Below, in pieces: positions 1 to 56,624 of a stretch of DNA of 64,000 nucleotides. The position numbers and the translations under genes were made by a program. Under the pieces are notes generated by a model, which was not told the DNA's origin, ran no database searches, and saw nothing but the letters and a program-made list of their open reading frames with translations. The stretch is taken from positions 90,706,001 through 90,770,000 of the forward strand of contig OX597819.1 in the NCBI GenBank assembly GCA_951406725.2, in the 5' to 3' direction. The stretch comes from Octopus vulgaris. Taxonomy: Eukaryota. The first letter of the stretch is position 1, and each line of letters starts with the position of its first letter.

Positions 1-1640
1 TTGCATTTAGAGCCATTTTACATTACCAGTAGGAAAAAAAAAAGGACTAAGTGCAAGGGCAGTGTCAAAAGAAGTTAATGATGTGGAAGGTCCAGGAACT
101 GTCAGTGTTGCCAACAAAGCACGCGGAATTCTGTTCTTGATTCGACGGTCATTCGGAATGCTCATAGCAGCCATATTCCTACCGCTCTATGTCATGCTGG
201 TGAGACCCATATTGGAGTATGGGATTCAAGCCTCTTCTCCTTATCTCCTCAAAGACATACAGCATCTCGAAAGAGTCCAGAAGCTGGCTACCCGCATGGT
301 TCATGGTCTCAAGAATTTGTCTTATGAAGAAAGGCTGAAGATGCTCGACCTTTATTCTCTAGAAAAATGCCGCCGCCGTGGTGATCTCATTCTTGCTCAC
401 AACATCATAAGTGGAAAGTGTAACCTCTCGAAAGAGCTATTCTTCACTCCTGCTCCAGAGCGTCGGCTGCGGGGTAATTCCGAAAAGCTCTATCTGCGAC
501 GATTTCATCTCAATCAAAGGAGAGGGACTTTCTCCGTCTGGGTTGCGGATCCGTGGAACAAGCTGCCAGACGAGATGGTGAAGATGCCAACGACCGCTTT
601 GTTCAAAGTCTCCCTTGACCTCAAGTGGCCTGAACTCTTTACATGAACACCACACTGTACATAACTCAATGTCCCCCTACATGGCCTTGCTTTTTGCTTT
701 TTGAGCCAAAAAATTAACTAACTAACTAACTAGCTTAGATGTTTCAAGCAAGGTGACATCAGCCTCAAAAACAACAAAAGGTCTCCCCAAAGTCTGGGAG
801 ACTGTCTGTTGTGGAAGATGAAGCCTTGCTTGAAATCAGCAGAACTTGGTCCTTCAAAAAGCATCATCAGTTGACACCTCCATAAGCTCAGCCTTGAGAA
901 CAGATGATGTTTAAAAGCTCCTCATAAATGACCAATCACCAGGCTCAACAATGTGTGGGAATTTGCAAACAACTGCTGATAAATCCGTGAGATGCTTGTT
1001 TTTGATACTGAATTGTAACTGGGAATTATATATAAAAAAAAATAATCTATTTTTGTAATGCTAATACGACAAATCAGTGGCTTCATTCTAGCTGGGCTTC
1101 AGAAGCTGTTGTCAAACAAGGGCAGTTTGAACAGATCATGTTGAGTGTTTGGTGGAATTTTGAGGGGGGTGTTGCAATTTGAGCTTGTCCCAGATGGTCA
1201 TGCTGTTAACTCTTGCCTTTATGCTCCACAGCTGCAGTGAATATATGATGCTTTGAAAGCCTGTTACCCAGCATTAGCCAATTGAAGACACACAATGTCC
1301 CAGCACACACTGCTAATGCTCGACCAAGTGCAAACTTGAGGGGTTAGAAGTGCTCCCTCACCTTGCCTACAGTCCAGACCTTGCACCATCAGATTACCAA
1401 CTTTTCTGAGACATGGCTCATTTCATGTACAGATGGAGGTTCAATAATGTGGATGCAGTGGAAAACAGGCAAAAGGAGTTTTTTGCCTCTAAACCAGCCG
1501 AATGTTATAAACATAGAGTTGTGCTTCTGGCACAACAATAGCAACAAACAATAGAACATGATGGGATATATTTTGATGAATAAATGCTTTTCATATGTAA
1601 TTTGTTTGAAGTATTAATTAAAGCTTGCAAAATGAAAAAA
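1..1640 (+). mobile_element. Degenerate mariner (Tc1/mariner) transposase fossil, interrupted by a CR1 LINE at ~110-733
   Basis: Broken frames give an N-terminal HTH (KGLSARAVSKEVNDVEGPGTVSV ... FKQGDISLK) that resumes after the CR1 tail, then MLSVWWNFEG (~1140-1165) and the mariner signature YSPDLAPSDYQLF (~1368-1406). Multiple stops and frameshifts. Right end approximate. Confidence 0.85.
110..733 (+). mobile_element. 5'-truncated CR1-clade LINE (ORF2 C-terminus, 3' UTR, (CTAA)n tail)
   Basis: ORF to 646 has ANKARGILFLIRRSF...LVRPILEYG...SPYLLKDIQHLERVQKLATRMV..L..LSYEERL..LDLYSLE.RRRGDLI...WNKLP, typical of the CR1 ORF2 C-terminus. It ends in a short tandem tail ttaactaactaactaactag. Confidence 0.88.
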
Positions 1641-25143: not shown

Positions 25144-25654
25144 CCCTAAATCCTCGAGTGTAATCTGCATTTTTTTCCCAAAATTTAAAGGTCAAAATCC
25201 CTAGTGCATACTATATACGAGGTTAAAAATGAAAAATATTTTCTAAGCAATGTCCGAGTCTCTATTTGCTGTCCAGCAATGTTTATTCAGACGCATTTTG
25301 TGATGTTGGGCATGAAAATACCTTAAGCTAATCCTGAAAGAAATGAAGTCATAAAAGAATCATCCATAATTTGCAGTATGCAACATTTATTAAAATAAAA
25401 GTATTCAGAACACAGAATAACATGTAACAAAAACAATTTGCAAACATATTTACATTCCCATATAACACTTAAGAACATCATCATTATTGTATTACGCATG
25501 TGCAGAAGCATTTGTTCGACTAGGTGCTGCAGGCTTAATTACGCACGACTCAAGTTAGAGAAGGGGTGCGTATTATACATAGGTTTAGGCTTTTCAGAGG
25601 TACATCCCTAAAAATTATTATGCTCAAGGGCAGACTATACTCGGGGATTTACGG
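25144..25654. mobile_element. ~510 bp pogo/Tc2-type MITE
   Basis: TIRs (ta)ccctaaatcctcgagtgta ... tatactcggggatttacgg(ta) with TA flanks. A second copy in opposite orientation lies at 35613-36125. Confidence 0.8.
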
Positions 25655-25655
25655 T

Positions 25656-27920
25656 ATATGTATAGAGTTGCTCCATCAAATGCTGAGGTAAAAAAGGCCA
25701 TAAAACAGCTCACTAATGGAAAGTCATCTGGGAATGATGGCATACCAGCTGAGATATATAAATGTGGTAGCAATCTCTGGCTGAACAAATTATGTGAACT
25801 CTTCTCCTTAATCTTGGAATCAGGATCAGTCCCAGGGGAGTTTAAAGATGGTTCTATTGTCCATCTTTATAAGTGCAAAGGTAACAAATGTGAATGCGAC
25901 AACCATACGAGTAGCTCCATTTTGTGTGTTGCTGGGAAGATCTTTGGAAGGGTTATCTTAAACAGACTCGATGATGCCCTTGCCAGCTTAGTGTTGCCTG
26001 AATCTCAATGTAGCTTTCAGGCTGGTAGAGGCACAGTGAATACGATTTTCAGCTTAAAGCAACTGCAGTAAAAGGATGGTGAGCACAATCGAAACCGTTT
26101 TGTCACTTTTGAGGATCTAACTAAAGCCTTTGGCAGCGAATCTAGTGATGTTCTCTGGGTTGTCCTTAGAAAGCTAGGTGTTCCCGAAAAGATGCTCAAT
26201 GTCTTCATTTCTTTCCATCAAGGGATGATGGCTTCTGTCAGATCTAGTGGAGAAGTGTCTGATTCATTCACAGTCTCAAAGGGAACAAAGTAAGGATGTG
26301 TTCTTGCACTGCTCTTATTTGCTTTGCATTTCTCCATCATTTTGGAAACAGCATTTGAAGGAGTTAAAGGAGTAAAGTTTTTGAACAGAATCAGTGGGGG
26401 CTTGTTCAACCAACAGCGCTTCAAAGCAAAAACTAAAACTTTGGTGCAAACAGTCTGAGATTTGCTCTGTGCATTTGGAGCACACACTCTTAAGGACATG
26501 CAATAGATTCTAAACAATTTGCATGCAGCGAAGGCTTTTGGTCTGACCATCAGCATCAACTTGTCCATTAGCCCTTTCATGACCATCCTCCTGCTGCTGC
26601 TCCTACCGTATATGTTGATGGGAAAGCATTAAAACTTGTTTTCTCCTCTATTTATCCTGGTTCCATTATGTCCAGTGATGCTAAAACGGATAAAGAAATT
26701 GACTCTAGAATCAGAAAGGCTAGCTCCACTTTCAGTAAGCTTTATGACAGGCTCTGGAACAGCCACGATATATTGTTGAAGGTGAAAGTTGATGTATATA
26801 AGACAGTGGTTTTGACATCATTGTTTTATGGTGCTGAATCTTGGATTCTGTACCAAAAGGACATCAACCAGCTTGGTGATTTACATATGTGATGCTTGCG
26901 TACTATCATCATCATCATCATTTAATGTCTGCTTTCCATGCTAGCATGGGTTGGATGATTTCATTGAGGACTGGCGAACCAGATGGCTGCATCAGGCTCC
27001 AATCTGATCTGGCAGAGTTTCTACAGCTGGATGCCCTTCCTAGTGCCAACCGCTCTGAAAGTGCAGTGGGTGCTTTTATGTGCCACTGGCACAAGGGCTA
27101 GTCTGGCGGTACTGTCAACGGCCACGCTCAGATGGTGTTTTTTACATGCCACCTGCACAGGAGTCAGTCCAGTGGCACTGGCAATGACCTCGCTTGAATG
27201 TTTTGTTCATGTGCCACCGGCACAAGTGCCAGTAAGGCGATGCTAGTAACAATTTCATAATCTCCAACATAAAACCAAGTTACTATATTTATAACAGTGA
27301 GGTACTAACAAAATGCAACATATCAGGTATTGAAGCCACCCTCAAAATACAGCTTAAATGGTCAGGTCATCTCTCACATATGAGTGATATCAAAATTCCA
27401 AAGCAACTTCTCTTTGGCCAATTTCTAACAGGAAAATCAGTTGGAAGGCCACTCTTGCACTTCAGAGCCAAGCTAAAAGTCAATCTGAAGCAATGCAATA
27501 TTCCCTTTTCTTCCTTGGAAAACAAAGCATCAGAACGCAGGACCTGGTACCACTCCTACTTCTCCTCAGTTTAAAGATTTGAGCAAAGTCAACTCAAATA
27601 TTGGGACCAACTTCGTGCAAGCATGAAGGCACACTGGCAAAATGCTGCTCCTCTAAATGGAAATCTTACCTGTCATTGTGGTTTTGTGGCATAAAGCAAA
27701 GCAGGCCTTACCATCCACTCAAGGAAACATGTAGTAAATGATCCACAAATACACAAACAAACAGAATCCTCAACTTGTTCCATTTGCCACAAGGTTTGCA
27801 AGGCACCAGCAGGACTCAGGAGAAACATTCATGTCCATAGATCAGGATTATTTCTTTATTTTACTGAATCTTCATTGATTGTTCACAACGAGATTCCTTA
27901 TTGTTCATAACGAGATTCCA
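25656..27920 (+). mobile_element. Degenerate RTE (BovB-like) LINE ORF2, interrupted by a SINE at 26905-27250
   Basis: KSSGNDGIPAEIYK, IVHLYKCKG, LPESQCSFQAGRGT, FEDLTKAF, GTK*GCVLA, EIDSRIRKASSTF, VYKTVVLTSLFYGAESW, QLKWSGHL, IPKQLLFG, and C-terminal CxC/CxxC...H zinc-finger remains. Many stops. Confidence 0.9.
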
Positions 27921-30561: not shown

Positions 30562-31671
30562 TTAAGTAACTAGAAAGTTTATTACTCTATTTAAAAAATT
30601 AACAACTTATAGGGGATAAGAGGTTAATAGGTAAAGGTATCAAAATAAGAAACAAAATAATAAGAAATTATAGAGAAAAGTAAGAAAATATATATAACTT
30701 ACATTTTAAAGAAACAGTATTAAAATTTGAGGTAGGGAGAGATAAAGATAACCCCACAGAAGAAGCAATAGGTATAGTAGTAGTGAGGGCAGTTGGAGGT
30801 ATTCAGACCGAAGGGGTATTTTATAAGTTATAAAGTTACTGGTGCTATTACATACATGATTTTATAGTTTCACAGGGGTATATAATTAGGAGGCTTACTT
30901 ACGTAAAAGCCATTACAAAATATATAATATGATTAGTAGGGTAGAACATCATAGAGAGGAATAAAGAGTTTAATTAACAAAAACATGATGAAGTTAGACT
31001 AATTAGGCAGAATTATTCATAGGATAGCAACTACGTGTACATATCATATACTATACCATATAGCTTATAATATATGTAATGTACTTTAATTCATCATACA
31101 ACTCAATATCCCATGATTTTATTATATATAATACTAGGGGTTAAGTTCACATCAGATATGACACTAAAAATTAATTTCTATCTAGGTTCAAGTATTGCAC
31201 CTATAAATGCTAATTTAGAAAATATTTAAATGTACAGGTGACTCTATGTATGCATGATACCTTTAGGTCTAATCTATTATTAATCAGGTTGCTCTTGTCC
31301 CTATACTTAAAAATCTCATAAGTTTCCATAGAGCACAGCTTGCACCTGTATCGACTATCTCTATAAGGCTGTGCTTTCCTATAATATCCCATTTAAGGCT
31401 AAATTCGATCCCACTTTCCTCCAGTTCCCAACTCTTGCTAGATAAGGACGTACAATTGGCCTTATGTTTGAGCCTAAAAGATGAAAAATGATTGTTAGTA
31501 CTGTAAAGTATAGAAGCCATCTTAACATGGCTAACCACGTAGGGGAGGGGGTGTTACTGTAGCTTTATAGCCCCAGGAGATCGTCGTCTCCAGCTGGCTT
31601 TAGACACCATTTCAGTGCCCTTGAAGTATTTGCAAAGGGAGGCCATCTCTTCCTCACAAGCCTGAGTGATA

Positions 31672-31714
31672 CGCTCGGACTAGTTTCGGGATTTTTGTCC
31701 CTTGTCAACGGGCG
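31672..31714 (-). ncRNA. Type I hammerhead ribozyme, U3-A8 core variant (left-arm copy)
   Basis: Reverse complement of the copy at 33100-33142. Confidence 0.72.
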
Positions 31715-32113
31715 GTAACCACCAGGTCGCGATGAAAGAGAAGGCTGCCTTGCAAATATATAAGAGTTTTTCTAGTGACGTCTGCCACTGATTTCGAAAA
31801 ACTGACAGTAAGCATTATTAAATCTCAGATTGTTAGTACGTTTTTCATATTTATTGAACATCCTACAGTTCTTAGAAGTGTAGTATATTCTTAGCTATAT
31901 TAGTGGCAACATGGACTGTTTCCCTATTCTTGGTCTATTAGAGCATTTGAGTAAAATTACATTAATGTGTCCAACTGATTAAAAAATTCTATTTATCTAT
32001 TTATGTAGCATTTAAATTGATGTAATGATTGCATTGTCCAATTAAATGGAGTCACTTGAAACGGTCATACTGCATCACCTCTTGATATCCTGTTGCTTAT
32101 TTAGATTATATAC

Positions 32114-32151
<38 letters not shown>

Positions 32152-32349
32152 TGTTTAACTGTTAATCCCTACACATTTTTTCTCTCTCCTTTTTTTTTAC
32201 CTCTCAATCCTTTCTGTTGAAGAGCATAGGCTTGAAACCTCAAAGACTTTCCATTCTTTCCAACCGTCAAACTAACACACCTGTCTTCATCTTTTGATTT
32301 CTGTAAATTTGAACTATATATATATCTGGATATCCTGTTGCTTATTTTG

Positions 32350-32412
<63 letters not shown>

Positions 32413-32645
32413 TATACATATGTATATAAGCTATATATATATAATCAAAATAAGCAACAGGATATCCAGATATATATATATAGTTCAAATTTACAGAAAT
32501 CAAAAGATGAAGACAGGTGTGTTAGTTTGATGGTTGGAAAGAATGGAAAGTCTTTGAGGTTTCAAGCCTATGCTCTTCAACAGAAAGGATTGAGAGGTAA
32601 AAAAAAAGAAGAGAAAAAAAATGTGTAGGGATTAACAGTTGAACA

Positions 32646-32691
<46 letters not shown>

Positions 32692-33099
32692 TATACATAT
32701 GTATATAATCTAAATAAGCAACAGGATATCAAGAGGTGATGCAGTATGACCATTTCAAGTGACTCCATTTAATTGGACAATGCAATCATTACATCAATTT
32801 AAATGCTACATAAATAGATAAATAGAATTTTTTAATCAGTTGGACACATTAATGTAATTTTACTCAAATGCTCTAATAGACCAAGAATAGGGAAAAAGTC
32901 CATGTTGCCACTAATATAGCTAAGAATATACTACACTTCTAAGAACTGTAGGATGTTCAATAAATATGAAAAACGTACTAACAATCTGAGATTTAATAAT
33001 GCTTACTGTCAGTTTTTCGAAATCAGTGGCAGACGTCACTAGAAAAACTCTTATATATTTGCAAGGCGGCCTTCTCTTTCATCGCGACCTGGTGGTTAC

Positions 33100-33142
33100 C
33101 GCCCGTTGACAAGGGACAAAAATCCCGAAACTAGTCCGAGCG
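33100..33142 (+). ncRNA. Type I hammerhead ribozyme, U3-A8 core variant
   Basis: CGCCCG-TTGACAA-GGGA caaaaa TCCC-GAA-AC ta GT-C-CGAGCG: stem I 5/6 bp, stem II 4 bp, short palindromic stem III, GUC triplet (predicted cut after 33136). Confidence 0.75.
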
Positions 33143-33382
33143 TATCACTCAGGCTTGCGAGGAAGGGATGGCCTCCCTTTGCAAATACTTCAAGGGCACT
33201 GAAATGGTGCCTAAAGCCAGCTGGAGACGACGATCTCCTGGGGCTATAAAGCTACAGTAACACCCCCTCCCCTACGTGGTTAGCCATGTTAAGATGGCTT
33301 CTATACTTTACAGTACTAACAATCGTTTTTCATCTTTTAGGCTCAAACATAAGGCCAATTGTACGTCCTTATCTAGCAAGAG

Positions 33383-35450
33383 GTGGCCTGAGCTTACAAA
33401 AGGCTAAATACTGCACATTTTCTTCTATGAACACATTGATAAAATCACTGGAAAAATTGGCGATGAGCTTCTCAGTTTCTACTCTTATCTTTGCATCAAC
33501 TTAACTACATAAGTTCAGTATAGCTTTGAACTTACCATGCACTGATTGATAGGCTGTCCTGTGTTTTTGTAAGCTGACAAACAACTGATCTAAAATGATA
33601 TTGAAAGTCCCACATCTGAATTTTTCTCTTGCAGAAAGTGAAACTTCCTCTGAGGTTGATGCTAGATTTGCATCACATTTGATTCTCTTCCTTTGTCTAT
33701 GTGTCATTGATTTAAAGTCTGCGTTTGCGTTTCTTCACATGTTCCTCTTATCCAGTTCCAACCCTTCATACTTATCCTCGTGATTTCAGAAAGTTTTCCA
33801 AGGAATCAATTAGATACACCACTTTATTCAGATCAACTTCAAGTCTTTGAAAAACTTTAATTTTAATTAATTAAATTTAACTAATTTAATTAAACTTTAA
33901 TTAATGTTAAACTGTACAAGAATTAAGTTCTAGATCTTAGCCATTAAAGCAGTTTCATGACAGTCCAATTTGTCTGCCTGTGTCTGAGCTTCATATCTTG
34001 CTTCAGGTGTTTGTTCTAAATTGTCTTCAATATCTTTGAGTGCATTTTGAATTAAGTTATATCTATCAACAAGGGCTTCAATAGTATATGCTCTTGCTGA
34101 TCGACGAGTTTCTGAAAAGGACTTTAAGGTTAGCTTTCTTTATTTCCTTCCCCCAAAATTCAATAAATTTGCCCATCTGTGTGTCAACACACAAAAAATG
34201 TATATATATTTTGAATGGAACCAAAATATCTAACAGGTTCAACACAGTAAGGACCAGCAGTGTGTCCAGCAAGCAAGATTCAACAAATGAGGTGCACAGA
34301 ATGAAAATTGTAGTCAAGTTCATTTCCTTAAACCTGGCTTGCATTTCTGTGTAGTGATCTGGCACTACCATAGAATTGTCTCTGCAGTCTTCAAAATTTA
34401 TATTCTACTTTTAAAGAAATTCTAACTCAGATGTGGATAGTATTTCCACTTTATGAGAACCAGTTGACAGGAAAGTTAAAAACCTTTTCCAGAAATACTA
34501 AAATGCACAAAAACTGTTGGCTGATCAACATGAGCACAGTTTAGATTTAAATCTACAGAAGATGACAAATACTTGGCAGATTTACATTTTGTTACAATAT
34601 GAGTCATATATTTTGCATTCAACAGAACTGTATGACTGCTTACCACTTTTGGGATTGTCAAATACATTCTAGTGATTCATTGGAAATGGGTCAAATTGTG
34701 TAATAAAGATCCATAATTCACCCAAATTCTCATCATACTTAGATCCAATGATCTTTTCATAACCCCTAAGTGCCAGGCCTCTCTAAGCTAGAAATATTGT
34801 TACAGCTACAACATAATATTTCATTCAACTATTTTTTGTTTTCCTGCACTTGTTTTTCCAACTCTCTACTAACATGAGAACATCTCTTACATAAAATATT
34901 AAACAACAACACAAAATCTCTGTGGCATTGTTCATGTGCTTTCATTTTCATCTCTACTATTTGTTCAATCATTAAAGCCATCCTTGATGGAAAACCTGTC
35001 ATAGTGGCTTGACATCAAAGTACAGAAAAGGCAATAAACTGCATTCTTTGATGAGCTGTACAAGATCCACCTTTTCAAATGCTGCTTACCATTGTCACAA
35101 AGAATATAATACATTGAAGTTTGGCCCACCCAGTTTGCCTTCCCATTTTTTATAATGGGGTCAAGATTCTGGGTTCTAAAAGAACATTGATGCATACTTT
35201 TCTCTGGAAAAAACTACATGGCTTTGTTGAAATACCAAGCTGCAATTTGCTATCCATAGTGATTCTTCATCTCCAATCCAATTTTTTGCAGATGCACTTG
35301 AGAATGCAGCTATTTTCCCAAAAGTGACACCTGTTACTGATTCTTCATTAGCTTTTAAGTTTTCCTTTTTCCTAAAGAAAGAAAAATTGGGCAAGGAGTT
35401 GTGTCTTTGCCAATACAGTAACATTTTTTCACTTCTGACTTTGGAAATTT
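33383..35450 (-). mobile_element. Degenerate hAT transposase (ZMYM1-like, TTF-type zinc finger)
   Basis: Fragments RWILYSSSKNAVYCLFC..GFND, AKYLSSSVD..HVDQ, MQARFKEMN, REKFRCGTFNIILDQLFVSLQKH in the order expected for a hAT transposase. Many frameshifts. The left side abuts the PLE palindrome. Confidence 0.78.
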
Positions 35451-38281: not shown

Positions 38282-41200
38282 CAGTGGTTCTCAAACTGGG
38301 GGTCTGTGAAGCAATTTTAAGGGGACCACGAAGGGACGCTAAATTATTGTGAAAACTAAGTGGCATGAGACAGTTAAGTTAAAAAATTCCAAGACTTCCA
38401 ATTTTTGTCGTTGACTTCAAAAATCCATGCTACTCCTACACACTCATTTGCTAATTACATTTGTACAACAAGTGTGATTGGCTGAAGGAAAATATGTGGG
38501 TATAACGGTTGATCGTGCATATGCTGTCACTATTCTACGTTCACATGATTCACCACTCCACTACTGCAATCCACATGTTTGCATGTCTCATTGTCATTAT
38601 CCTCACCGGTGCATGTTCCTGCATAACTTTGCCCTTTGCCAGACAACCATTCTCATCCTGCATGTTGGCTGGGGTTTGTAAATCATGTCTGGTTTTCATG
38701 GCAACGTGTTCTGACGGAACTGTCTTCTCAACGGTTATCAATTCACGGAGGTTTATCTACGAAAAAACAACGTTCACATACACTTTGGTTTTCTTCCTAA
38801 GCTAACAGTGAGAGGTAAGCTTTATTGCTAATTAGTACACCCAAAAGCTGACTACAATAAAGCATATATGCACACCCGTAGTATATGATAAATGCGAAAG
38901 AAGTATACAATGTAGTTATATTAAATTGGTTTTATCTCTTTTTACAATGCTTCTCCCCCTCCCCCACCAAAAAGAAGTAAAAGAAAATGAGATATGACCA
39001 ATCTTATTTGAAATTTGATTTTACTGTGATAAAGTCTGATGGAGAAGAGAAACCATAGTGTGTTTTGTGTTCCAACGTTTTGGCGTCTACTTCATTAAAG
39101 CCCAGCAATTTAAAGAAGCACTTTGAAACGAACTATCCCAGTTCAATAAATAGAGATGTCGACTTCTTCAGACGCGAAGCCGACATCTCTATTGGCAAAA
39201 TCCAGACTTAATAACACAGGGATGTCTTCGCTGGACATTACGGCTAGTTTGAAAGTGTTCTACGAGGTTTCAAGGAAAATAGCTATTGCTGAAAGCCCCA
39301 CAATATCAGCGAAAAGCTGATATTGCCTTGCTGCAAAGATATTATATCGAATGTGTTGGGAAGTTCTGAACTTCGGAAGCTGATGCAAGCCTCTTTCTCA
39401 AACGATACAGTTAGCAGGCGAATACTATTAGCTGTCTGATAACATTTTGTTGCAGGTGGTCTCAAAGATTCACAATTTGCTTTTTAACTTTTTCGCGATC
39501 CAGCTTGATGAAATGATGGATGTTGTCATCTTAGCCTAACTTTGCGTCTCTGTGTGTTGTACATAATAATCGCCTGGAAGACGAATTCTGGTTTTGCGAA
39601 ACCCTAAGTACCAAAACAACTGCAAGTGAAATATTTGATAAAGTGGACAAATCTGTTGAGACCCATGATATTGTAGGGGCAGTTACCTCCCCTGACGGTG
39701 GCTGCTTAATGAGTTAAACAACAGAGGGCATTACGCAACATTAAGGTTCAGAGACTCGGCTCATCCTCTTTTCTCGCCAAGACGTCGGACTGTAAAGACG
39801 TAACCAAATTGTCTCTCTCATGACACGAGGCAATGCACAGGAGAACATCATGGCCTCCACGCATCAAGCCATTTTCATTTATCATCCAGCTTGTGTATAC
39901 AGACATGTACCACATTCTAGGATTTTAGTTGCTTTCTCATGCTAGCACTTCCAACACTTAACCCAGCTGTTCAAGTGCCTACATTCCTACGATGTGAAGA
40001 TCAACCCGGCTAAGTGTGTATTCGGTTCTACCAGCTTGGAATTCTTGAGGCATCTCATTGGTGCCGACGGTATTCGTCTGCTTCCCTTTAAGGTGGAAGC
40101 CATCAAACGCTTGTCTCCTGCTCAGAAATTTTATTGGTTTAATTAATTATTATCGTCGCATCATTCCTAACTGTGCGGAGAAGTCGCTCCTCTTTACCCA
40201 GCTCTTGAAAGATCAACGGGGGAAAAAAAAAGACTCCCAGATAACGCTGTCTATTACAGCCATTCAAGCTTTTGAATCTGTCAAAACTGACCTTACTCAA
40301 GCATCCTTCCTCGTTCATCCTGTTGCGGATGCAAAATCATCACTTACTTTTGATGCGTCATCATCAGCTGTTACCGCAGTTTTAGAGCAATCTGTCAACA
40401 GCTGAAGCCAGCTGTTAGCTTTCTGCTCTCGCCTACTGAAAAATGCTGAATAGAGATACAGTGTGTTTGGTAAAGAACTCTTAGCAATTTACCTGGCGGT
40501 GAAGCATTTCTCTTATCTTCTTGAAGGTAGAGATTTCACTATTATAACCGACCACAAACCGCTAACGCTCGCTCTCTTTGCCAAAATGGACCAGTATTCG
40601 CCCAGGTAAACAAGACATTTGGACTACATATCACAGTTCACTTGTGACGTGTGCCACATCGCTGGCACTGACAAGATCCCTGCCGACGCCTTATCTCGCC
40701 TGCCTATCGGTGCATTGTCGTCTCCTGCTTCGATTGATTTGGTTGCTATGGCTACTGGCCAACCCTCCTTGGACTCTCTGGACGTCTCTTCACCACAGTT
40801 TCCCTGCTGCAAGTTTGACCACCTGCCTCTGCCTTTTTCCGAAGAAACTATTCTCTGCGATGTTTCTACTGGGTCACCACGACCCCTCATTCCTGAATGT
40901 CACCGTTGTACTGTTTTTGAAGTCCTGCACCCACTGTCACACCCTGGCATTGCGGCCACAGTAAAGCTTATCGCGGCCCGCTATTTCTGGCCGAATATGC
41001 GTCGGTCTATTACTGCTTAGTCACGTGCCTGTATTCCATGTCAGCGTTCCAAGGTGCATCGGCACCTGAGAGCACCTCTTGGACACTTCCAGCCACTGGA
41101 CACCAGGTTCCGTCACATACACAGCGACCTGGTTGGTCCTTGGCCGGTCAGTTGTGGATTTTACTTATATATTGACCTGTATATATATGACCTGAAGCCA

Positions 41201-45281: not shown

Positions 45282-45552
45282 CATACATATATATATATAT
45301 ACATATATATATATATCATCATCATCATCATTTAACATCCGTTTTCCGCGCTAGCACGGGTTGGACGGTTTCGACCGGGGTCTGGGGAGCTCGGGACTGC
45401 CCCAGGCTCCAGTCTAGTCTGGCAGTGTTTCTACAGCTGGATGCCCTTCCTAACGCCAACCACTCCGCGAGTGTAGTGGGTGTTTTTTACATGCCACCTG
45501 CACAGGTGCCAGACGGGTCTGGCATCGGCCACGTTCGGATGGTGCTTTTTAT

Positions 45553-46024
45553 GGGGGGGGGTGCAGAAATATAGGGGAGCACCAGTGGGAGGGGTGGTTC
45601 AGAGGACAGGTACTAGGCAAGTAGAACGTAGGATATCGAGAGAGGGGTAATGCATGGTGAAATAGCGTATTGAAGAGGGGGCTTCAAAGAGTAGACACCT
45701 ATAATGGTGGTGGGGGGTGCAGAAATATAGGGGAGCACCAGTGGGAGGGGTGGTTCAGAGGACAGGTTCTAGGCAAGTAGAACGTAGGATATCGAGAGAG
45801 GGGTAATGCATGGTGAAATAGCGTATTGAAGAGGGGGATTCAAAGAGTAGACACCTATAATGGTGGTGGGGGGTGCAGAAATATAGGGGAGCACCAGTGG
45901 GAGGGGTGGTTCAGAGGACAGGTTCTAGGCAAGTAGAACGTAGGATATCGAGAGGGGGGTAATGCATGGTGAAATAGCGTATTGAAGAGGGGGGTTCAAA
46001 GTGTAGACACCTATAATGGTGGTG
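45553..46024. repeat. GC/purine-rich tandem repeat, 156-bp unit x3
   Basis: cagaaatataggggagcacc recurs at 45564, 45720 and 45876. Units are nearly identical. Confidence 0.93.
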
Positions 46025-47382
46025 GGAGAAACGACATCCGGTATAGTTGGAGCAAAATAGAGATATCCGGTATTGGTGGTGGGGGTGGGTAGGGCGGGCG
46101 CGCCGCGAAGAATCGGCAGCCAATTTCTATCAGCCCTGTAAGGGAGATAGATCTTAAATATCTATAACGATAACTAGTGAATTATACAGAATATGCAAAA
46201 ACGAGGCGAGGCTGAAATAGTAAACAGAGTGGCGACTAGGGGGATCAGAATAATAATAATTAATAAATAATAATAATAAATAGAAATACGGGATGAATTA
46301 AAGTTCAAGGATTTCTTATCTTGGGATCACTTCGTTTACGGACAGTCTTGGCAAAAGGAATTCGGAATCAAGAATGAGGCAGGTTACTAGCTTAAGTATG
46401 CATAGCCATGGCGAGGAGTAGGAAGAGAGGAGTCCAGACAGACAATGTAAAAAGAGGGGGAGAGAAGGGCGCGAAGAATCGGCAGCCAATTTCTATCATA
46501 TATATATATGTATTATATGCATATGAATTTGACATGGGCGATTCTTTCTTGTCTTGGGACTCACGGTCAAACAGCTGGGTGGAATTGCGCGAAAAATTAC
46601 ACAGATGTATAGACTGATCTGATGGTGATGCTGGGCTTTGTATGTTTTTCATAGCTCCCAAGGTTGCTGAGATAATCTACTATAATAATACTCTTGTGTT
46701 TATGAATGAGAAGGGAAGGGGTGATAGATGAATAAGGAAGGAAGGGTTTGATGTCATACTTTTTTCATAGGTCCAATGCTTACCGAAATAATCTACTATA
46801 ATAATACTCTTGTGTTTATGAATGAGAAAGGAAGGGGTGGTGTCATACTTGGTAGTGGGATTATGAAAATTGTATGCTGAAAAAATAAATCAAGCAGCGT
46901 TTCAACTCTGTGTGAATATATGTGCATGTATGTAAAAGTTGGGTATGCGAATGTGTGTGTGTGTGTGAGTGTGTTTGTGCGCGTGCGCACAATGGAAGTG
47001 GGATGGTTCATGTTTGTTCGCTTAGTATTTGGGTTTATTTTTTTTGATTTGGTTGAATCTTGGTTGGTTTATTTTTTTTGTTGGTCAGTTATTTTTTAGC
47101 GTTTTGACAGAAATAAGTCGTTCTAAAATTGTTTTTTAACATAAGCATGCCCAAACAAGTTGAATGCTTACACAGAGCAGGTTTTACAACCACATCATCC
47201 AAACTGACGGGTGAGACCGGGCTTAGCTGTTAGTATATATATATATATATAAGGTCAATATATAATTTAACTCCTGGTCACCAAAACGAAAAAAAAAAAA
47301 GAGTCTAATATGTATAAAAAATTGTCTTGGAAACGAATATGAAAACAAAAGTTTGCACAAATGAATGGCTAATAGGTGATGA

Positions 47383-48052: not shown

Positions 48053-48469
48053 TCTTGGTAATTATTTGACGGCAACGATCCAAGAGAGGAGGATATAACT
48101 TGACTGCCTATATGAAGATCTTGTGTAACAGACCTTCTTCATGTTAAGAAGTTATAAATATCTTGCAAGATATTGTTGCAGATATTTTGATTGAATTTCA
48201 GGCTTTTGAGTTGATTCTTTTATGTCTCTCCAAAGTTTTTCAATATTTTGTGTGTGTATGTTTCTATGTGCGCTATCTTCAAAATTGTTAGAGTGAAGTA
48301 TTACACACCCAGCAGAGCATACTAGCCGTGTTCCTCTCTAATCTTTGCATGTCCTCTGCATTCAGAACTCATGTGTCCTAATTGGATATAGATTCCACAG
48401 TGGCTTCATAAATGATGGTCTTGGACATGCAAGCTCCATTTAAATAACCTGTACACCTGCCACCAGTTC

Positions 48470-48700
48470 AATAATAAAGAAGAGGAAACATAGGAATAGG
48501 AAGACTATCTGGTTCACACACCGCTATTCCCTCGAAGTGACCTTCAATATAGGCAGGTATTTCTTGGCACTGATAGATAGACATTTTCCAGTCAACCATA
48601 GTTACAGAAAGCTCTTCAATAGGCATAACTTAAAAATCAGTTTCAGCTCAACTACTAATTTTAAAAATATAATCGCACACAACATACAAAAACCACAATA
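48470..48700 (+). mobile_element. Penelope-like ORF fragment (post-RT linker)
   Basis: RNRKTIWFT/PYSLEVTFNIGRYFLALIDRHFP..HSYRKLFNRHNLKISFS..NFKNII, characteristic of the PLE type seen at 31.2-31.5 kb. Confidence 0.78.
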
Positions 48701-48842
48701 TGAAACCAGCTGTTCAGACCACACAGCCACTCTTACCCCTTTCTACAAGAATGCTGGGTGTCGAGTTTCTAGAGACGATCTGGAGAATTATCATAGCACC
48801 TGCTGAGTCTGAGTAATTTCAATAATTAAATATTATTTAGAT

Positions 48843-55937: not shown

Positions 55938-55939
<2 letters not shown>

Positions 55940-56533
55940 CAATAATAATTCTCTAAATGAGATATAGACAGTAACTGCTCCATAACATAAGGGACTAAAG
56001 CCATCTGAATATGGCTAGGGATAGGGCAGGGTGGTGGGGGTGTTACTGTTGCATTTAGCCCCAGGCGAACATCAACGTCGCCAGATAGGCTTGACACCAT
56101 CACAGCGTCCTCTATCCTGCAAAGGGAGATAATTCCCCGATGAAGCGGAAACCACACACGGACCTAGGTTTCAAGGTGTTTGCCTATTATCAACGTATGG
56201 TAGGCACCGCTTCCTCGACGAACAACTCACTCTGCAGGATATTTATATATAGATTTTCAAGCAAAATACATTTGCTGATTTCGAAAATCTGTTCGACAGC
56301 AATAATAATTCTCTAAATGAGATATAGACAGTAACTGCTCCATAACATAAGGGACTAAAGCCATCTGAATATGGCTAGGGACAGGGCAGGGTGGTGGGGG
56401 TGTTACTGTTGCATTTAGCCCCAGGCGAACATCAACGTCGCCAGATAGGCTTGACACCTAAATGCAACAGTAACACCCCCACCACCCTGCCCTGTCCCTA
56501 GCTATATTCAGATGGCTTTAGTCCCTTATGTTA
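55938..56533 (-). mobile_element. Non-coding hammerhead-bearing retroelement (retrozyme/PLE-like): 360-bp unit, partial tandem copy and inverted 75-bp segment
   Basis: 55938-56098 repeats at 56298-56458 (period 360). 56458-56533 is the reverse complement of ~56342-56418. Flanked by TA microsatellite. Hammerhead at 56152-56200. Confidence 0.8.
56152..56200 (-). ncRNA. Type I hammerhead ribozyme, U3-A8 core variant (second family)
   Basis: Minus strand: CATACG-TTGATAA-t AGG caaaca CCT t-GAA-ACC ta GGT-C-CGTGTG; palindromic stem III ACCTAGGT and GUC triplet. Confidence 0.7.
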
Positions 56534-56624
56534 TATATATATATGTCTTTCAATGTATATATATAAATATGTCTTTTTTTTATATTTATCAACCTTATTT
56601 TATTGTATTTTAATTTATTTCTAT

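Follow-up and report, generated by a model that had tools for sequence, protein, structure and literature searches.

Amplified hammerhead core variants in a short tandem element, probably a retrozyme, of Octopus vulgaris

The hammerhead motifs of a 64,000-nucleotide stretch of the Octopus vulgaris genome (contig OX597819.1 of assembly GCA_951406725.2, positions 90,706,001 to 90,770,000), referred to as the window in what follows, belong on the evidence of their sequences to two subfamilies, A and B, of one tandem element of about 360 bp and not to two families. This element is likely to be a non-coding, non-LTR retrozyme carrying a type I hammerhead in each unit. The U3-A8 pair found in the cores of the window copies is one of five cores amplified in the family. 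The unit, its copy number, the anatomy of its insertions and its core states were read directly from the genome; a retrozyme combined with slow cleavage as a dimer and with insertion of the type known from Penelope-like elements (PLEs) is jointly the best explanation of these observations, and one which we regard as fairly probable.

Hammerhead motifs and insertions in the window

Three type I hammerheads with UUGACAA or UUGAUAA cores had been recognized in the original prediction, and all three are present. Each has a stem I of 6 bp and a stem II of 4 bp whose loop counts 6 nt; these are followed by GAAA, by a short stem III of palindromic sequence and by GUC. In the subfamily A motif (33100..33142, + strand), stem I is formed by 33100-33105/33137-33142 and includes a C33103·A33139 mismatch which had gone unmentioned. 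It is followed by the core UUGACAA (33106-33112), with the U3-A8 pair at 33106/33111, by stem II (33113-33116/33123-33126), GAAA (33127-33130), the palindromic stem III and GUC, which ends at 33136, the nucleotide after which the cut is predicted. The subfamily B motif (56152..56200, - strand) has the core UUGAUAA at 56193-56187, with U3-A8 at 56193/56188, a stem II starting with a U·U mismatch (U10.1·U11.1), and GUC ending at 56161, with the predicted cut after this position. The third motif (31672..31714, - strand) is identical in sequence to that of subfamily A. Six matches were returned by a descriptor scan of the window, three of which are these motifs, and 100 block shuffles of the window gave a mean of 0.77 matches, or 0.1 with a U-A or C-G core. 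The cores of the window copies are the known U3-A8 variant of the type I core (CUGANGA, GAAA and UH, with a Watson-Crick pair between positions 3 and 8); those of the sister subfamilies with U3·G8, C3·A8 or U4C fall outside this definition. The window hammerheads are canonical type I and not of the minimal PLE type.

The A motif resides in an insertion (32982..33315, + strand) made of 334 nt of the 357-bp unit, with one hammerhead and a 3' end at unit position 179. It is accompanied by a 12-bp target-site duplication (left copy 32975..32986, right copy 33313..33324, + strand). This insertion is included with host DNA in a palindrome of 1.96 kb (31428..33386) which displays a (TA)n centre and outer arms differing at 8 of 696 bases. 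Since the mirror half repeats the 12-bp duplication of A together with about 290 bp of flanking host DNA, the motif at 31672..31714 folds as predicted but provides no independent evidence: it required no separate insertion, and the mirror is either a later inverted duplication of the A insertion or an assembly fold-back. The palindrome additionally contains an inner pair of 228-nt arms and represents either a real fold-back duplication or a haplotype misassembly. The B insertion (55938..56458, - strand) comprises 521 nt, or 1.45 units, with one hammerhead, a 3' end at unit position 223 (with tail) and a (TA)n end. Its inverted, 5'-truncated partner (56458..56534, + strand) has its 3' end at unit position 179 and a (TA)n end as well. 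With one hammerhead per strand, the window copies are likely dead ends.

Other repeats were observed in the window. At 45552-46026, a 156-bp unit is repeated three times in tandem with 97-98% identity. A 120-aa fragment at 48444-48806 (+ strand) resembles the C-terminal RT/linker region of Naiad-type PLEs, and the segments at 11-646 (+), 25589-26071 (+) and 40610-41020 (-) have the look of decayed LINE RT/endonuclease and LTR-retrotransposon integrase regions. A Pfam search with the fragments at 48444, 25589 and 11 gave no meaningful match.

Taken alone, the motifs of 43-49 nt do not fold better than shuffled sequences (z about -1.2) and their MFE structure is a blocked fold. The 130-nt hairpins enclosing the A and B motifs gave z-scores of -6.0 and -6.3, respectively. 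In the first of them (33056..33185, + strand), stem I is extended and a bulge in loop 1 faces loop 2. In 18 hand-picked subfamily rows, stems I, II and III are paired in 94%, 93% and 100%, with double-sided changes, and covarying pairs are also present in the distal extension of stem I. The alignment of the Rfam model Hammerhead_HH9 (RF02275) to A covers 33088-33158 and extends across the stems and loops, loop 1 with its bulge and loop 2 both being in register; it scores 32.7 bits (E 6e-7 in a search of 161 bases) for a gathering score of 52. Subfamily B gave no hammerhead match, and neither did the whole window among 150 of 154 matches listed, these being microsatellite-driven noise. Among five sister loci, a hammerhead was returned for one, a U3·G8 locus (Hammerhead_1, RF00163, 26.7 bits, gathering 34), and all copies searched (A, B and sister loci) remain below the gathering thresholds of clan CL00010.

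In the model of the monomer, the probability of stem III is zero, as expected for a ribozyme active only as a dimer, and G5-A6-Y7 are paired with GUC at 0.76-0.97. The hammerhead is predicted, with good though not full confidence, to cut slowly and to depend on dimerization. Circular folding of all six natural monomers considered gave z-scores of -2.7 to -7.3 (30 shuffles each), with 58-66% of the nucleotides predicted to be paired.

The tandem unit and its mode of insertion

The two divergent families of the original prediction are not upheld, as the A and B units are homologous over their full length (240 of 375 columns identical, 64%) and are linked by a ladder of intermediate subfamilies. 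Measured at natural tandem loci, unit lengths are 357 bp for A, 360 bp for B and 353-360 bp for four sisters, and the GC content of these six is 42-50%. A unit motif chosen outside the ribozyme has 9,941 matches in the 2.8-Gb, 227-contig assembly on which all genome-wide counts are based, and its control has 0. Each unit carries a type I hammerhead, in one core variant or another. Same-strand runs of up to 9 units are formed, and in one array, which belongs to a U4C/C3-G8 subfamily, the aligned columns show no difference between eight neighbouring units. No LTR-like frame was seen at 29 A and 25 B loci. An RT/GIY-YIG ORF of at least 170 aa joined to a unit was found in none of 180 loci, mostly searched over 1.5 kb on each side, and the one GIY-YIG fragment encountered among them is a separate insertion about 330 bp away. 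The motifs reside in a non-coding tandem unit and not, as the PLE context originally proposed would have it, in the terminal repeat of a coding PLE. Several properties of non-LTR retrozymes are found together in the element: a unit length within 150-450 bp, monomers to multimers, no protein coding, a GC content under 50% and a target-site duplication longer than 4 bp, this last being 12 bp at the window A copy, the sole copy checked.

No sequencing run recorded as RNA is listed as containing the unit. In four runs guessed to be RNA, contigs span most of the unit and carry in part a G at core position 8, contigs of this sort being unable to show the kind, strand or ends of the molecules. As a separate observation, a U4C/C3-G8 subfamily closely related to B occurs on contig C1 (e.g. 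31009480-31013487, loci L311-L315) as up to 9+3 units arranged head-to-head.

Non-LTR retrozyme units of 350-390 bp in mussel, 330/350 bp in axolotl and 220-245 bp in coral are given by Cervera & de la Peña 2020 (PMC7229834). As described there, metazoan non-LTR retrozymes share with the octopus element the short non-coding tandem unit, the canonical type I hammerhead with a short palindromic stem III, a GC content of at most 50%, a long target-site duplication and a self-paired circular fold, predicted in the present case. In the axolotl HHR_Amex2 (PMC7229834), moreover, helix II has a U·U mismatch at its base, as in subfamily B. The octopus family differs from the retrozymes of that report by the presence of the standard core in only 19 of 48 hammerheads of a core-independent sample. 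Non-LTR retrozymes are derived from PLEs according to a preprint (bioRxiv 2026.07.22.740005).

The anatomy of the insertions was established on 29 A and 25 B loci, which are top BLAST hits biased to long copies, with 6 duplicate loci skipped. In both subfamilies, the 3' ends form two clusters about 44 nt apart, near unit positions 179 and 223 as counted from the predicted cut, and the 5' ends are variable. An inverted piece is present at 10 of the 29 A loci and 16 of the 25 B loci, and (TA)4+ lies at most 40 nt from an end at 11 of these A loci and 24 of these B loci, for a background of 20%. The 5' ends of the inverted pieces display no pile-up at the cut site. The element thus displays the characters of PLE-mobilized copies, namely a fixed 3' end, an optional tail, 5' truncation, an inverted partner and a microsatellite bias. 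The PLE signature is described in two reports as partial tandems with an inverted truncated copy and an optional tail (PMC8557442), the length of this tail corresponding to the spacing of the two internal sites at which the RT starts (PMC11167929). The PLEs Poseidon and Neptune treated in these sources share with the element the partial tandems, the inverted 5'-truncated partner, the AT or microsatellite targets and the optional tail from two RT start sites; their tail measures 30-40 nt versus about 44 nt in the element, which has no ORF. By analogy, the element was likely spread by a Penelope-type retrotransposon.

The genome contains at least 150 copies, of 94-100% protein identity, of a young PLE family (L211:981-5801, G000:C5) which has an intact RT + GIY-YIG ORF of 781 aa, a long 5' region, direct terminal repeats and (TA)n ends. 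By its linker motif, we take it to be of Neptune type. This family, the sole one compared, has no significant homology to units A and B and was discarded as a parent or partner of the element. In 31 of 31 rows, its 3' repeat contains a U3-A8-like motif of the minimal hammerhead type, with GUU as its site and a weak stem I; the motif gave no match in an Rfam search and is a candidate hammerhead.

Core states and the history of the 3-8 pair

Among the BLAST-aligned rows, some of which represent the same site within overlapping loci, the core is UUGANAA in 36 of 37 for the A query, the exception being a G5 change, and in 50 of 54 for the B query, the other 4 being U3·G8. UUGANAA is the family state of both subfamilies and U3-A8 is fixed in them, so that the copies cannot be dismissed as independent decays. 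On this point the original prediction, whose separate families and PLE context are not retained, is confirmed. The stems covary, and the palindromic character of stem III is kept from one subfamily to another. The prediction had also warned that a CUGANGA search would miss the U3-A8 copies, which is the case: as judged from 29 of 48 frames in the sample drawn independently of the core, such descriptors would lose about 60% of the hammerheads of this family.

Counted as copies and not as events, and with other hammerhead-bearing repeats included, the matched patterns in the genome amount to 2286 for C3-G8 (control 12), 1370 for U3-A8 (28), 771 for U3·G8 (17) and 212 for C3·A8 (8). The U4C and G5A patterns, which took both pyrimidines at position 3 and both purines at position 8, gave 2586 matches (control 56), making U4C the commonest core pattern, and 174 matches (control 100), respectively. 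The G5A matches are scattered, among the 100 listed, and the 100 listed for the purine-3 pattern (443, control 188) are dominated by one unrelated repeat. U4C accompanies C3-G8 in 95 of 100 matches listed, about 62 of which come from one subfamily.

Several repeats were noticed in the course of these counts. About half of the purine-3 matches listed (C1-C3) contain an identical 34-bp motif, often in inverted pairs 2.5-4.5 kb apart, suggesting the terminal inverted repeats of a young DNA transposon. The U4C matches listed also include another repeat (L292, L296, L297, L299, L300), often in inverted pairs, whose hammerhead has a U4C core but stems unlike those of the element. Four U3·G8 hammerheads with a spacing of about 1.38 kb are located at L144 (G000:C1:94321000-94327500), in a local tandem duplication with a LINE RT fragment.

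In the sample of 100 units drawn independently of the core, a hammerhead frame was recovered in 48 by a test requiring GAAAC, which leaves copies with a broken GAAA uncountable. The cores of these 48 frames are C3-G8 in 19, U3-A8 in 10, U3·G8 in 9, U4C in 8 and G5A in 2, with A6 and A9 unchanged in all. Perfect palindromes account for 9 of the 20 stem III sequences seen, including the 6 commonest. All the observed core changes are transitions. Young amplified subfamilies exist for every core state except G5A. The B-related groups (including U3·G8 and U4C) and the C3·A8 groups display 97-99% identity between copies (3-9 distinct copies each); the C3·A8 subfamily, which occurs in tandem, reaches 99.3% (5 distinct copies compared), and an older group with U3·G8 is at 94%. 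From listings inspected by eye, the longest arrays belong to the U4C subfamily, and a 5-unit run is also present in one C3-G8 subfamily.

Two trees were built, the first from 84 representatives of 163 rows kept from 187, and the second from 72 rows of 186 kept from 209, with a midpoint root and positions 3, 4 and 8 masked. On the 72-row tree, positions 3 and 4 require 5 changes each and position 8 requires 10, and these counts are the same when the ribozyme columns are removed. The most divergent rows are nearly all C3. All U3-A8 and U3·G8 rows fall in one branch (support 99/93), and both a single clade of U3-A8 rows (p-AU 1e-4) and an exclusive A+B clade (p-AU 3e-5) are rejected. A C3-G8 group nested within the U3-A8 rows has a C3·A8 subfamily as its sister, and a U3·G8 subfamily near B is the sister group of the large U4C/C3-G8 subfamily (100/97). 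In the simplest reading, U3 would have been gained once, early, from a C3-G8 ancestor and shared by descent in A and B, position 8 would have flipped repeatedly between A and G through the U·G wobble, and C3 would have been regained at least twice in amplified subfamilies. Recombination between subfamilies could mimic part of this core history.

By itself, the U3-A8 core had been described before. Hammerheads with this pair are reported from nature in earlier work (Perreault 2011; Cervera 2014; PMC3088659, PMC4209133), with about 1,300 matches in Schistosoma (PMC4209133). The U3-A8 hammerheads of the Schistosoma Cercyon PLE, as presented there (PMC4209133; PMC3088659), resemble those of the octopus by the tertiary 3-8 covariation and by their abundance in a repeat, but they are of the minimal PLE type, whereas the octopus ones are canonical, lie in a non-coding unit and have U3·G8, C3·A8 and U4C sisters. 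Among the papers listed by the literature searches, no cephalopod retrozyme and no amplified U3·G8, C3·A8 or U4C retrozyme family was found. The part of the present results not found in print is the core walk, that is, the amplification of several non-standard cores within one family.

Proposed mechanism, selection and alternatives

The explanation favored here can be briefly summarized as follows. A tandem array would be transcribed, and two hammerheads would pair via the palindromic stem III and cut after GUC, yielding unit-length RNA, perhaps circularized. In the monomer, the core would be blocked by the predicted pairing of G5-A6-Y7 with GUC. A PLE protein would nick AT-rich or (TA)n DNA, and reverse transcription would begin inside the unit, at one site about 179 nt and another about 223 nt after the cut, and pass the cut site, giving rise to more-than-unit copies and inverted partners.

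Selection is likely to keep the fold, Y3/R8 and the catalytic G/A positions, and yet to accept slow cores. The lack of amplification of G5A, the invariance of A6 and A9, the covarying stems, the palindromic nature of the commonest stem III sequences and the association of U4C with C3-G8 in the matches listed argue for selection for catalysis. Against strong selection stand three observations from other reports: in a mutational scan of another hammerhead, variants in the core region are all low except the G:C swap (PMC9901934), a purified PLE performs insertion in vitro without need of hammerhead cleavage (PMC11167929), and 8 of 9 Xenopus retrozyme dimers were not cleaved in vitro (bioRxiv 2026.07.22.740005). 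The young tandem C3·A8 subfamily also counts against the favored explanation. The compensatory argument of the original prediction, in which the double change to U3-A8 pointed to selection, is weakened by the amplification of U3·G8, C3·A8 and U4C in young subfamilies.

These facts leave some room, though not much, for a largely dispensable cleavage. The repeat would then be mobilized by PLEs from uncleaved multimers, its fold being kept for other reasons (protein binding, RNA stability) and its core drifting by transitions in an AT-rich genome. Such a drift would account for the exclusive occurrence of transitions and for the amplified U4C, U3·G8 and C3·A8 subfamilies, and it agrees with the cleavage-independent insertion of PMC11167929 and with inverted pieces whose 5' ends are not concentrated at the cut site. 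G5A is nevertheless a transition as well and was not amplified, A6 and A9 are invariant in 48 of 48 frames, and stem III has stayed self-complementary through many sequences, which a hairpin loop does not need. Among the matches listed, which stem from few lineages, U4C is almost never associated with U3 or A8. Both U4C and the U10.1·U11.1 mismatch are, in addition, reported to lower activity without abolishing it (PMC3088659).

It is quite improbable that the units represent pseudo-LTRs, whether solo or in arrays, which belong to an autonomous PLE, as the original prediction implied. The insertion anatomy is indeed of PLE type, and Xenopus retrozymes and pLTRs are related according to the preprint (bioRxiv 2026.07.22.740005), but the arrays consist of pure units, the 180 loci, mostly extending 1.5 kb on each side, are devoid of attached RT/GIY-YIG ORFs of at least 170 aa, and the hammerhead is canonical with loop-loop sequences and not of the minimal PLE type, one PLE family having been compared. 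An independent origin of A and B with convergence on U3-A8 is very improbable and appears already contradicted for U3 and for the whole element, given that A and B align over the whole unit through intermediate subfamilies and that U3-A8 and U3·G8 rows share a well-supported branch, even if the rejected A+B and all-U3-A8 clades suggest that A8 was perhaps regained separately and a U3-A8-like motif recurs in all 31 rows of an unrelated PLE terminal repeat.

Within the favored explanation of a retrozyme cleaved slowly as a dimer and inserted in the PLE manner, it may tentatively be proposed that the lineage was selected for a slow ribozyme. The 3-8 pair would have walked both ways through wobble or mismatch, changing from C-G into U-A and U·G and returning either through C·A or together with U4C. 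Weak cores might have spread via longer templates or via cutting in trans, in which sister RNAs with the same stem III palindrome would cut the weak-core RNAs.

The question at stake is the need for hammerhead cleavage in PLEs and retrozymes. Five cores in young amplified subfamilies, placed on a resolved tree, make it possible to compare cleavage rate with copy number, array length and the level of circular RNA, and the single steps of a compensatory change at a catalytic tertiary pair are available in the family as natural intermediates. If selection for a slow ribozyme is true, the octopus genome would preserve a fitness landscape, explored in nature, for the active site of a ribozyme, with cheaters among the variants.
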